Positions 8,748-63,776 of a DNA stretch of 64,000 nt are shown piece by piece (within the stretch, counting starts at the first letter, position 1; every line of letters starts with the position of its first letter). Position numbers and translations under genes: made by a program. Below the pieces are notes generated by a model. It was not told where the DNA came from and searched no databases. It saw only the letters and a program-made list of their open reading frames with translations. The stretch comes from Eledone cirrhosa (Eukaryota): NCBI GenBank assembly GCA_964016885.1, contig OZ024756.1, positions 24,924,001 to 24,988,000 of the forward strand, read 5' to 3'.

Positions 8748-8944
8748 TATATGAAAAATTTGGGACCACGACAGCCGAGCTGCGGCCTTTTCACCAGTTA
8801 GATCTGAATGCTTGGATCAAGCTGTTGAAACGGCCGGAGCTCAGCAGTTGGGGTCCCAATTTTTCATATTACCCACGCTACTACCCCAAGTATTGAGTAC
8901 TCTGGTGAGTAATGGTCTAACTGGTTTTTACCACCTCCATTCTG
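8748..8944 (+). mobile_element. Short (TA)n-flanked hairpin element with 3' tail (family E, Penelope-like)
   Basis: Imperfect ~55 bp inverted arms ATATGAAAAATTTGGGACC...GGTCCCAATTTTTCATAT plus a tail containing TTGAGTACTCT; related copy at 63575-63776 and a tail-only copy at 48789-48868. Confidence 0.65.
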
Positions 8945-8959
8945 ATATATATATATATA

Positions 8960-9180
8960 AACAGTGACATATGCAGGTACTTAAGTTTCATTGGGGTTAT
9001 TCACCCCAACTCATTTCGCCTGTCATTTTCTTTTTATATGCATTGTTATATATAACAGGCTAAATGAGTTGGGGTGAAGAAGCCAACGAAACTTATGTAC
9101 ATGTACATGTCACTGTTCTAACTAATTATACTTAAGTGTTCTTACCCTTGGATATTTATACCAAATTTGTACTTCAGTGT
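8960..9180 (+). mobile_element. Fold-back element with hammerhead-like fold (family C)
   Basis: Inverted arms 8960-9023 and 9055-9117; consensus ACAGG-C(T/G)AAATGA-GTTGG..CCAAC-GAAA-CTTAAG-TA-CCTGT; related copy at 16082-16211; TA flanks. Confidence 0.65.
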
Positions 9181-9242
9181 ATATATATATATTAATAAAA
9201 GATTGGAGGTCATATTCATTTGATTCAGGTTTATTTAAAACT

Positions 9243-9300
9243 CCGTTATAGATATTTCACTGAGGACTATCAATTATGATAGCCTGCGCACTTCAGATGG
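9243..9300 (-). ncRNA. Degenerate hammerhead-like motif in a TA-flanked fragment
   Basis: Minus strand reads CCAT-CTGAAGT-[CTATCA/TGATAG stem]-GAAA-TATCTA-TA-ACGG; mismatches in the core and stems. Confidence 0.35.
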
Positions 9301-9675
9301 CAAAACCTAAAAAAAAACTTTGAAAGTTCCTAAGAAACCTTTAAATTTGGAAAAATCCAATAATTTCCCTGAAAAGATTTTCTTTTCATGATACAAGGGG
9401 CCGGCCAAATGCGTGGTGTTGTTTCTTCGACAGCTAGTCCCTATTAATATATAATGCTCCATCTTGTACCATTTATACAGATACCATTTATTTGGGTCAT
9501 TGGGCACTTCTTTTTATCAGCTTCACAACCAACAGACCATGGTGTGACCCGCACATCTATGTTCTGTTAATCCCATACTCTAATATACATATATATATAT
9601 ATATATATATATATATATATATATAAAAGAATGAATCAGAACCCCGATGGCTGCAGTATAGCCATTTCAACAGCT

Positions 9676-9897
9676 CAGGGTGTCCCCAAAAATTATATAC
9701 ACACTTTGATTACCTGTACAGGCAATATTTATTAGAATGCTCAGCCTTTCTCAAAAATAAAATTATCTATTTACATGCATCAATTGTATGTAAACACCCA
9801 AAAATGTTTACATAATTTGAATAATGCATATAAAACAATTTATTTTAATGCATTGTTTAAAGATTTTGTTATGTATACATTTTGGGAGGACACCCTG
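9676..9897. mobile_element. Tc1/mariner-like MITE
   Basis: Terminal inverted repeats CAGGGTGTCCCCAAAA ... TTTTGGGAGGACACCCTG; miniature relative at 29043-29120. Confidence 0.7.
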
Positions 9898-9900
9898 TGT

Positions 9901-10255
9901 CATCATCATCATTTTACGTCCGCTTTTCCCTGCCTGCAAGGGTAGGACGGGAACTGATTCTGGCTTGATTTCTACAGCTGGATGCCCTTCCTAACACCAA
10001 CCTCATTTACAGTGAGTGGTGGGTGCTTTTTTTTGCCATGGCACCTCCACGTCCACTTTACAGTGTGGGCTGGGTGCTTTTTTTGCCGTGGCACCTCCAC
10101 GACCACTTTGCAGTGGAATGATAGGGACCCCAGTCTTATCATCTCATTTCTACAGCTGAGTAAACTGGAGCAATGTGAAATAAAGTGTCTTGCTCAAGGA
10201 CAAACACATCACCCGGTCTGAGAATTGAACTCACAACCTTTCGATTGCAAGGCCA
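9901..10255 (-). mobile_element. SINE family B (tRNA head, CORE-like domain, RTE-type tail, (GAT)n)
   Basis: Reverse complement closely matches 63214-63542. Confidence 0.9.
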
Positions 10256-10638
10256 TCGAAAGGTTGTGACCTTGCAATATATTATTCTTTATCATTAATA
10301 TTCATAATATAAAATAATAATCATATATAATTATTTTAAATTTTTTTACCCAAATTTATTTTCGAGAAGGGTCTCAAATTTCATATAGCTTAGGGCCTCA
10401 ACAGGTGAAAGATCAGTCCTGGCTGCAGCATATCAATATTGCATAACTACTACACAACTATAATGCATAGCTACAGTGTGACACATTTCAATGCTATTGA
10501 GTGGCAATATTTTGATCACCACACTAACACAGCGACTATATTAGAGAGATTTTTGAGCAACAGCTATCAACATCGTTAAATATTTAATTCAAATTATAAA
10601 CTAATGAAACCAATGAAAACAAAGTGGAAAATAAATAC

Positions 10639-10775
10639 CTGCATCAGATCGGCCAAGTGTTTGTGACATGGGGAAGGTTTTTGGTCGGTGACGACACGAT
10701 TCGGAACTTGGAAGTGTGGCTGAAGATCGAAAGTCGTACTTGGCTAATGTTTCCACTCTGTGTTTCCGAAGAACT
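10639..10775 (-). CDS. NCKIPSD: Internal coding exon (137 nt, phase 2 in, phase 1 out) of the NCKIPSD/SPIN90-like gene
   Basis: Acceptor ctttctctctccatcag, donor CAG|gtattt; only one open frame: VLRKHRVETLAKYDFRSSATLPSSESCRHRPKTFPMSQTLGRSDA; HRVETL resembles the post-SH3 HRKETL segment of NCKIPSD as I recall it. Confidence 0.7.
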
Positions 10776-61108: not shown

Positions 61109-61134
61109 GCATATATATATATATATATATATAC

Positions 61135-61425
61135 ATGCAACTGTGTCTGAGAGGAATAAATTGTTGTGTAGACTGCGATGGTATGTACATGTGATGCGCA
61201 TGGAGGGTGACCGATGGGTGAAGAAGTGCCAAGAAATGCCACTTGAAAGAAGACTTAGTAGAGGAAGACCACGAAAAACATGGGTGGAGGTGGTGAGAGC
61301 AGACCTCAGAAGCTCAGGGAGGAGATGACAAAGGACCGTGACAAGTGGAGAGACGCTGTGTTGAATAGGACCCATCCCACCCTTGCAAGCAGGGAAAAGC
61401 GGATTTAAAATGATGATGATGATGA
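61135..61425 (+). mobile_element. RTE-clade LINE 3' end
   Basis: RLRWYVHVMRM..WVKKC..RGRPRKTW then CCCACCCTTGCAAGCAGGGAAAAGCGG..(GAT)n. Confidence 0.9.
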
Positions 61426-61481
61426 TTATCATCATCATCATCATATATATATATATATATATATATATATATATATATATA

Positions 61482-61745
61482 TGGTGGCTTAGTGGTAAGG
61501 GTGTTGGACTTACAATCATAATGTTGTGTGTTCGATTCCTAGGTTGCGTGTTGTGTTTTTGAGCAAAATACTTCATTTCACATTGCCCCAGTATACTCAG
61601 CTGAAAATGAATACCAGCAATAGCTGAGGATTTAACCCTGCGATGGACTGGCGTCTTGTCCAGGGGTGGAGTCTTGTACTCTCAATCGCTTCACGGCATG
61701 AAACCAGGATAAGTACCGGCCAAATGAGCCTTCTGGCTTAAGACA
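61482..61745 (+). mobile_element. Third SINE type: tRNA head, CORE-like and V-like domains
   Basis: TGGCTTAGTGG, GTTCGATTCC, TTGAGCAAAATACTT..CTCAGCTG, CCTGCGATGGACTGGCGTCTTGTCCAGGGG. Confidence 0.75.
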
Positions 61746-62875
61746 GATTTTAGACTTAGATATATATATATATACATATATATATATAGTTGCTAATTAC
61801 TGTGTTGTTTATCTGTAAGAGTTGTATTGTGATGTAAGCAGCTAAAAGCACTCCACATCTGTTTTATCAATCCAGCATGAAGGTGGCGATCAAACATTAT
61901 GAAGTTACCATGTATGAAATAAACGTTAAGACAGAAGTTGCATATCATATTCATTATACACATTTCTGTGTATAATGAATATGATATGCTGTTATGCAAT
62001 TGTTAAAACAGCAACCGGCATGACATCATTAGATGTTAACAAAATTATGTGGGTGGATTGATATCTTGTGGGCTAATGCTACAATGTTTGCAAATGTCCG
62101 GCGAACATATAAATACACATATGTATATACATACAAGCATACATACATATATATATGTACGTATATATGCATGCATACACACACACACACACATATATAT
62201 GTATATGTGTGTGTGTGTACCCGAACAGTTACAGAACTGTCTTAAGTTGTTACAGTACCAACCAATACCTACTGAAAGGTCAATTATCCATATTTAATTA
62301 TCTATTCTACCATATCACCCACTATACCACCACCACATCACTCACCCAACCACCCACCATACCTCCCTTCTTTTGATTACTGAATGTTAAAGCTGGTGCA
62401 TTATTGCACCAGCTCCTACAATTCTTGCACTTTATTCAGCCATCTGTCTTCCATCACTTGTGAACACGGTTTTAGGAGATACTTTGCTGATCTCCTAAAC
62501 CCGATCACAACAGCTTCAAATACAATAACCATAATTCTAGCTAAAAATACACAATTGAGACAACAACAGCAATTATAATATCCGACTGGCTGATTTGGGA
62601 TCTTTTGAGAAAAGTAAAAAAATAGGTTCTTTTGTTGACAGACATAGAAAATTTGTACAGGCATGTCCAGGCTGTTCTTTGGTCCAGGCAGTGTAAGCGA
62701 ACATTAGTGGCGTCATGGTTTCATGTCAGCAATTAAACTGAGTTTTCTGACCACTCTGACCACAGAAATGGCAAACACATGCATACACGCACACCCACAC
62801 ATACACCCCACCCAATGAATGAAGATTATATATATATATATATATATATATATATATATATATATATATATATAT

Positions 62876-63125
62876 ACATGATGCGCATGGAGGATGAGCG
62901 ATGGGTGAAGAAGTGCCAGGAATTGCCAGTTGAAGGAGGACGTGGTAGAGGTAGACCACGAAAAACATGGGCAGAGGTGGTGATAACAGACCTCAGATCG
63001 TTGAAGCTCAAGGTGGAGATGACAAAGGACCATGACAAGTGAAGAGATGCTGTGCTGAATAAGACCCGTCCCACCCTTGCAAGCAGGGAAAAGCGGATGT
63101 AAAATGATGATGATGATGATGATGA
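62876..63125 (+). mobile_element. RTE-clade LINE 3' end
   Basis: MRMEDERWVKKCQELPVEGGRGRGRPRKTW and the same 3' tail as 61135-61425. Confidence 0.9.
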
Positions 63126-63213
63126 TATATATATAGGAAAAGTAAAAAACAATAGCAACAACAACAAGGAGTACAGTTACGAAAAGTGTTTGGTATTAGG
63201 TTCACACACACGT

Positions 63214-63542
63214 GAGACACATGGCTTAGTGGTTAGAGCATTGGCCTTGCAATCGAAAGGTTGTGAGTTCAATTCTCAGACCGGGTGATGTGTTGCTTCC
63301 TTGAGCAAGACACTTTATTTCACATTGCTCCAGTTTACTCAGCTGTAGAAATGAGATGATAGAGACTGGGGTCCCTATCATTGCACTGTAAAGTGGTCGT
63401 GGAGGTGCCACGGCAAAAAAGCACCCAGCACTCACTGTAAATGAGGTTGGTGTTAGGAAGGGCATCCAGCTGTAGAAATCAAGCCAGAATCAGTTCCCGT
63501 CCCACCCTTGCAAGCAAGGAAAAATGGACACAAAATGATGAT
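63214..63542 (+). mobile_element. Full-length SINE family B
   Basis: A box TGGCTTAGTGG, B box GTTCAATTC, CORE-like CCTTGAGCAAGACACTT..CTCAGCTGTAGAAATG, GGAAGGGCATCC block, RTE-shared tail. Confidence 0.92.
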
Positions 63543-63574
63543 ATATATATATATGATATATATATATATATATA

Positions 63575-63776
63575 TCAGTAAGGGTGTGCTAAAATACCAA
63601 GTGGACCATAACCCAGCAGAGTACTCAATACTTGGGGTAGTAGAGTGGGTAATATGAAAAGATTCAGGACCCCGACAGCTGTACTTACTCTGGCTGTTTC
63701 GACAGCTAGATCCTAACTCGGATCTAGCTGTCAAAACGGCCGGAGCTCAGCCATCGGGGTCCTGACTCTTTTCATA
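63575..63776 (-). mobile_element. Family E hairpin element, (TA)n-flanked
   Basis: Arms ATATGAAAAGA.TCAGGACCCC..GACAGCTAGATCC / GGATCTAGCTGTC..GGGGTCCTGA.TCTTTTCATAT; tail homologous to 8868-8944. Confidence 0.7.

Follow-up and report, generated by a model that had tools for sequence, protein, structure and literature searches.

Penelope-like elements (PLEs) have been described to insert as inverted, 5'-truncated copies with a one-sided tail and a bias towards (TA)n (PMC8557442). Hammerhead ribozymes occur throughout the Hydra clade of PLEs, including its octopus member Hydra-1_Obim, which has a (TA)n preference. These hammerheads have a U-U closing stem II, a U at the cleavage position and an ACTT-AAGT stem III (PMC8557442 supplement). 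For the ends of Naiad elements, half a hammerhead core alone was noted (PMC8557442). Here, we describe short fold-back elements in a 64,000-nt stretch of the Eledone cirrhosa genome (assembly GCA_964016885.1, contig OZ024756.1, positions 24,924,001 to 24,988,000, forward strand), hereafter the window, in whose coordinates all positions are given. Most likely, these short pieces are truncated or non-autonomous PLE insertions, constituting the 3' ends of several PLE families in (TA)n. Their one-sided-tail architecture is a PLE signature and the strongest signal for this assignment.

Minimal PLE hammerheads occur dispersed and as opposite-strand pairs 100–700 bp apart in truncated PLEs and show U3-A8 covariation and high variability (PMC4209133). 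The protein of the Anolis PLE Poseidon PAc cleaves AT-rich DNA on both strands and extends each of them. Two start sites of its reverse transcriptase (RT) bound the tail, and hammerhead cleavage is unneeded for insertion in vitro (PMC11167929). Natural hammerhead core variants have been listed, and U4C is mentioned there as performing poorly in vitro although it suffices in a viroid (PMC3088659). In O. vulgaris, 190 PLE families make up 6.83% of the annotation (PMC13282606 and supplement). The main text of that paper has no occurrence of the word "ribozyme", and its consensus library may already contain the families described here. (TA)n-targeted, hammerhead-bearing PLEs have already been described in octopus; the present value is narrower. 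The role of the hammerhead in PLEs is puzzling, as insertion in vitro does without it and Naiads lack it.

Fold-back architecture and (TA)n flanks

A first-pass annotation of the window had proposed at least six mutually dissimilar families, 80–450 bp long. Families C, D, E, F, G and H were each recovered at the annotated positions by self-BLAST with simple repeats masked, and there were zero cross-matches between families C to H, in agreement with that proposal. The length range did not hold for G, which extends over approximately 700 bp. The loci were as follows:

8748–8944, unstranded: E1, fold-back with a tail of approximately 75 nt; GAAAC present, no core upstream
8960–9179, unstranded: C1, fold-back, arms 55/66 identical; degenerate hammerhead; tail at approximately 9130–9179
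9235–9305, unstranded: singleton 9243, plain hairpin; hammerhead unsupported
12594–12849, unstranded: D1, fold-back; hammerhead fold with CAGAAGA core in both arms; plus-arm tail at approximately 12763–12849
16083–16207, unstranded: C2, antisense tail and sense fragment with GAAA, stem III and stem I'
24074–24206, unstranded: D2, antisense tail and short fold-back, cut off 3' of the core
25569–25843, minus strand: D3, single arm with approximately 190 nt of upstream sequence and a (TA)n array on each side
30822–31518, unstranded: G, old fold-back, 207/291 identical, (TA)n in the centre
31547–31812, plus strand: H1, single sense arm with a (TA)n array on each side
37353–37659, unstranded: F, tail-to-tail inverted pair, 120/124 identical, central (TA)10, 44-nt extension on one side
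48789–48864, minus strand: E2, copy of the tail alone, flanked by (TA)n arrays
57582–57739, unstranded: D4, tailed antisense arm and short sense arm, both truncated within stem III
57862–57915, minus strand: singleton 57861, doubtful; core intact, stem III palindromic, stem I shifted by 5 nt
60665–61110, unstranded: H2, head-to-head fold-back with a 90-nt tail (61021–61110); arms 60665–60835 (minus) and 60850–61020 (plus), 170/171 identical
63576–63773, unstranded: E3, fold-back and tail, mirror image of the E1 orientation

Inverted self-copies were present at 10 of 14 loci (C1, C2, D1, D2, D4, E1, E3, F, G and H2), as had been claimed for most elements. Arm identity was 71–99% in the seven fold-backs measured. 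D3, H1, E2 and singleton 57861 were single arms. C1, C2, D1, D2, D4, E1, E3 and H2 were head-to-head fold-backs with both 3' ends pointing outward. All eight, from families C, D, E and H, followed a one-tail rule: exactly one arm carried a tail, 50–95 nt in length. The untailed arm ended at an AT-rich internal site, approximately 20–50 nt past the predicted cleavage site where a hammerhead was present. If arm ends were independent at a 60:40 read ratio, the chance of eight mixed pairs would be approximately 0.003 in this small sample of four families. G fitted the head-to-head pattern loosely, and F was arranged tail to tail.

Element ends lay within 6 bp of (TA)≥4 in 23 of 28 cases (14 loci), compared with 7 of 92 for 46 other dispersed repeats (Fisher p approximately 5e-14). 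This test was partly circular, as loci had been picked for touching TA and element ends were drawn by the analyst; singleton 9243 was excluded because it had no definable ends. Despite this selection bias, the TA contrast with the short and long interspersed nuclear element (SINE and LINE) pieces of the same window is large. Flank enrichment over other repeats was observed, and among the 14 loci the claim that all elements sit in or against (TA)n was correct apart from F, which is bordered by (GA)n and has (TA)n at its centre.

Inverted arms and TA flanks would also be expected from fold-back DNA transposons resembling miniature inverted-repeat transposable elements (MITEs), with terminal inverted repeats that insert at TA and hammerhead-like motifs that are incidental. 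The inversion point nearly common to E1 and E3 and the near-perfect inverted pair of F fit such elements. However, the arms were asymmetric with a one-sided tail, D3, H1 and E2 were single arms, and neither a fixed length nor symmetric terminal inverted repeats were found. We consider a MITE-like origin distinctly unlikely.

Further fold-backs were observed in the window. A TA-flanked segment at 15742–16050 contained an inverted pair (15787–15838 and 15889–15948, 78%) and had no hammerhead match. Additional inverted self-copies, some near microsatellites, were located at 50192–50237/50681–50725, 61940–61989, 35954–36036 and 12970–13142, and the relaxed descriptor introduced below detected no hammerhead in these four. 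Inversion is not confined to the TA-embedded families, since a SINE-type copy at 58009–58329 also formed a fold-back, with 90% identity.

Hammerhead motifs and their cores

In H, D and C, the inner 3' end was preceded, at a distance of 20–50 nt, by a hammerhead or hammerhead-like fold. The motifs with defined positions were:

25576–25652, minus strand: hammerhead-like fold of D3, core CAGAAGA (U4A) at 25630–25624, predicted site after 25590
31487–31498: G, 3' hammerhead half alone, in one arm
31613–31677, plus strand: H1, perfect type I hammerhead with 8-bp stem I, CTGATGA, extended stem II, GAAA, palindromic stem III and UA site
37370–37407: F, hammerhead-like, core CTGAAAA (G8A) in both arms
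60914–60979: H2, core CTGAGGA, stem II disrupted at its base

A strict type I descriptor detected a single perfect motif, that of H1, and none in 12 block shuffles. Allowing one core change added F, at the cost of one match each in 3 of 12 shuffles. With a relaxed PLE-style descriptor, five motifs were detected (H1, three D arms and one F arm), compared with shuffle means of 0 and 0.4 when up to one and up to two changes, respectively, were allowed, and a maximum of two among 40 shuffles. The relaxed descriptor was modelled on the Hydra-clade table, permitting unpaired bases at the base of stem II, and it was chosen after D had been seen by eye. The excess over shuffles argues against the motifs being incidental, as a MITE-like origin would have it.

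In the D fold, stem I consisted of a 9-bp outer and a 5-bp inner part separated by a U-rich bulge; stem II had 3 bp with a closing U-U and was followed by GAAA and a 5-bp stem III. In C, stems I, II and a palindromic III were formable around the core C(G/T)AAATGA in both arms, with G5 lost and an extra base. The G8A change in both arms of F disrupts the C3-G8 pair; in PAc, single changes at the C3/G8 bases abolished cleavage (PMC11167929). Singleton 57861 had an intact core but a stem I that was 5 nt out of register, and it was missed by the relaxed descriptor. E and G contained GAAA and the downstream half only, with no CUGANGA upstream, and 9243 had no GAAA in the right place and no hammerhead.

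The first-pass annotation had assigned the full hammerhead order to most families. This was overstated; the claim does not hold for E, G and 9243 and holds just in part for C, F and 57861. The type I core CUGANGA with GAAA and UH was found in H (exactly in H1) and departed from this form or was lacking in C, D, E, F, G and 9243. Palindromic stem III was seen as proposed in H, C, F and 57861; that of D is a hairpin.

Stems around the core were formable in H, D and C, and covariation was limited to one compensatory pair between H1 and H2. In stem I of H2, one A-U pair was replaced by G-C (compensatory) and one U-A by U-G (wobble), such that stem I was retained; its core was intact. D was too invariant for covariation.

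Could the elements be local rearrangements of AT-rich DNA beside unstable (TA)n, with chance hammerhead look-alikes? This would suit 9243 and perhaps G, E and 57861, in which a complete motif was absent, and z-scores of most folds were unremarkable. It does not account for families that recur at separate loci with the same ends, nor for the perfect motif of H1 with its covariation. We therefore regard it as highly improbable, and the abundance of D in public reads (next section) also argues against it.

Family D in public reads

The D stretch 25551–25861, excluding 25835–25861, was aligned with four of 14 public runs (80% likeness, 10% share). D was matched by 18,955 contigs and by 16,373 of 12.47 million restriction-site-associated DNA (RAD) reads of organism A, as well as by 48 contigs of organism B and 3 contigs of organism E. 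The matches in organism A, together with four loci in 64 kb, suggest roughly 10^4–10^5 D copies in organism A, a rough figure, as read depth is no copy-number measure. The exact D motif had no match in metagenome, prokaryote-genome or viral contigs, and the exact C motif had none in metagenomes.

Both 3' ends of D were common in organism A, as indicated by a tail-type base at 25565 in 3619 of 6080 reads and by 1536 loose ends running into the tail. Strand-switch joints were found at six or more points (25575/25621, 25584/25635, 25598/25623, 25616/25641, 25618/25630 and 25622/25635). The fold-back is therefore made anew at different points, and there is no fixed terminal repeat. With inversion points that vary among both window copies and reads, a MITE-like origin is largely refuted for D.

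Depth in organism A was 3'-biased, with approximately 7,500 over the hammerhead and about half of that (3,000–4,300) upstream, where it was flat for approximately 190 nt. A flat depth is also what a discrete non-coding unit would give, such as dispersed monomers of animal non-LTR (non-long terminal repeat) retrozymes, whose tandem-array transcripts would self-cleave to circular RNA and be reinserted by PLE enzymes. The missing open reading frame (ORF) and a joint that "goes back 66", seen in 70 D reads as one joint, agree with this origin, and a 2026 preprint derives retrozymes from the pseudo-LTRs of PLEs (10.64898/2026.07.22.740005). However, retrozymes are defined by tandem units of 150–450 bp and active hammerheads (PMC7229834), whereas the cores of D, C and F are non-canonical and no family formed a head-to-tail array within the window. 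Retrozyme monomers are a very unlikely source. The first-pass annotation had left the choice between PLE termini and retrozyme-like RNAs; architecture, tail, (TA)n, 3' bias and variable inversions favour the former, and the absence of head-to-tail arrays speaks against the latter. As a separate observation, 17 contigs linked sequence from the extreme 5' end of D3 to position 25715 again, which hints at a tandem sub-repeat of approximately 140 bp upstream in some D copies.

Among the 40 variants listed for D, no substitution fell within 25566–25637, the 72-nt hammerhead module, and 39 lay upstream. A 1-base deletion was present at 25636. Eleven weaker variants lay beyond the 40 listed, at least one of them a T>A of unplaced position, and a minority of D copies may carry the canonical U4. 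A 335-nt contig of organism E differed from D at 31 of 268 positions, every one of them among the listed variants and none inside the module (hypergeometric p approximately 3e-5; a single contig with a depth of 8.75, and a region chosen after seeing the data). Conservation of the module may reflect recognition by the RT and not catalysis.

Proposed origin and relation to known systems

In the favoured explanation, a PLE GIY-YIG endonuclease, either the element's own or acting in trans, would nick both strands of (TA)n. Each 3'-OH would then prime complementary DNA (cDNA) by target-primed reverse transcription, one cDNA beginning at the outer start site of the RNA (the tail end) and the other at an internal site immediately downstream of the hammerhead. 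After 30–250 nt, both cDNAs would abort, and joining of their far ends would yield the fold-back. The hammerhead would be inherited from the pseudo-LTR of the parent PLE. Because their cores depart from consensus, D, C and F probably cleave weakly or can do without cleavage. Given the flat upstream depth and the abundance of D, we lean towards short non-autonomous RNAs rather than full-length PLE RNAs as its templates.

Several observations weigh against a PLE origin. The tails were longer than the 30–40 bp usually described, the polarity of F was wrong with 3' ends inward, and the nearly identical inversion points of E1 and E3 are unlike random truncation. E, G and 9243 were without a core. 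The hammerhead fold was not the minimum-energy fold in D (−12.9 versus −15.1), H1 (−6.2 versus −7.7) or C (−10.1 versus −16.5), lying 1.5–6.4 kcal/mol above it. Rfam gave no hammerhead match in four sub-regions, nor among the 150 of 642 whole-window matches listed, so that this check went against the first-pass annotation; F, the left arm of G, H2 and 57861 were covered by the whole-window scan alone. The matches listed were sub-threshold microRNA hairpins and similar chance matches, with no twister or other ribozyme among them. Since even the perfect H1 motif was missed, the Rfam models are insensitive here. A check by motif descriptors had fared better, with the strict form supporting H1 alone and the relaxed form also three D arms and one F arm.

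The coding evidence points in the same adverse direction. Pfam models of RT and GIY-YIG matched none of 273 frames in the window (stop-to-stop, at least 48 aa, outside simple repeats), bearing out the earlier statement that no such ORF is present, and these copies are therefore not autonomous. No PLE C-terminus was found in the element interiors by six-frame reading. None of six family motifs was found in the octopus PLE consensi of the Craig supplement, in which line wrapping can hide some (PMC8557442), and the 3' ends of Hydra-1_Obim, Naiad_Obim, Naiad_Ovul and Naiad_Omin given there were unalignable by eye with the families. As there was neither an ORF match nor a consensus match, PLE membership rests on architecture, not homology. 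A Naiad origin of E or G was discarded, as they had merely a 9-nt word in common with the Naiad_Obim end, which is uninformative. In the 3' ends of Naiad_Obim and Naiad_Ovul (PMC8557442 supplement), two crossing, pseudoknot-like 6-bp helices around GAAAC appeared possible by eye.

More tentatively, D could be a hyper-amplified non-autonomous PLE whose fixed U4A core (CAGAAGA) is under purifying selection, either as an active core variant or as a silenced fold that acts as a cis-signal for the internal start of the RT; we see this as a possibility somewhat short of an even chance. If true, the one-tail rule records that both start sites are used per insertion, one per cut strand. No report of a U4A hammerhead core was found in a limited open-access literature search. 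Of interest as leads are the one-tail rule and the fixed U4A core of D, the latter being the novel one. Since D is very abundant and young and combines an invariant fold with a non-consensus core, it lends itself to a natural test of the role of the PLE hammerhead, and the numerous short fold-backs are a cheap genomic record of the use of two RT start sites. Such elements can wrongly pass as MITEs or microRNA hairpins.

The surrounding window is animal DNA rich in microsatellites. Positions 1–8722 were taken up by imperfect (TA)n/(TACA)n repeats, an array 8.7 kb or more in length that continued past the window start. An SH3-like exon with AG/GT splice signals (48303–48490, minus strand; Pfam SH3_9, E 0.006) indicates that the window is probably intronic, within a host gene. 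A 225-bp repeat was present in three copies with 98–99% identity (3648–3873, 6530–6754 and 27644–27868). Its end contained a C2H2 zinc finger, matched below cutoff by Pfam zf-C2H2 (E 8e-5), as well as a short 3' region against TA, and we take the repeat to resemble the 3' end of an RTE-type LINE. The two copies inside the long array had near-identical flanks, suggesting local duplication or an assembly artefact. Decayed C-terminal LINE fragments without Pfam match were located at 14902–15524, 22774–23259 and 26305–26639, and at 21084–21603, 28574–28739 and 55108–55767; judging by motif, these are presumably CR1-like and RTE-like.

Among the described systems, animal non-LTR retrozymes are likewise short and non-coding, carry type I hammerheads and are probably mobilized by PLEs (PMC7229834; 10.64898/2026.07.22.740005). 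Unlike the inverted or single elements described here, they are tandem and yield circular RNA (same sources). With the minimal PLE hammerheads, the elements share type I topology, palindromic stem III (H, C, F and 57861), and the occurrence of single motifs as well as opposite-strand pairs, whereas D differs from them in its U4A core, a real 5-bp stem III and near-invariance (PMC4209133). Poseidon PAc resembles the elements in a tail that lies 3' of the hammerhead and is delimited by two RT start sites, an AT-rich target and the extension of both strands, here as inferred from architecture; it differs from them in being autonomous and in having a canonical core. In hammerhead detail, D and C share with the Hydra clade the U-U closing of stem II, the U at the cleavage position and the ACTT-AAGT stem III. 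Like the endonuclease-containing (EN+) PLEs of this clade and Hydra-1_Obim, the elements combine (TA)n, an inverted truncated copy and a one-sided tail with a type I hammerhead that lies close to the 3' end and has U or A at its cleavage position (PMC8557442). Unlike Hydra-1_Obim, they have no ORF and no sequence match to it, their tails are 50–95 nt, and the cores of D, C and F deviate from CUGANGA; assignment to a clade would need an RT. As a class, the elements are of a kind already known.

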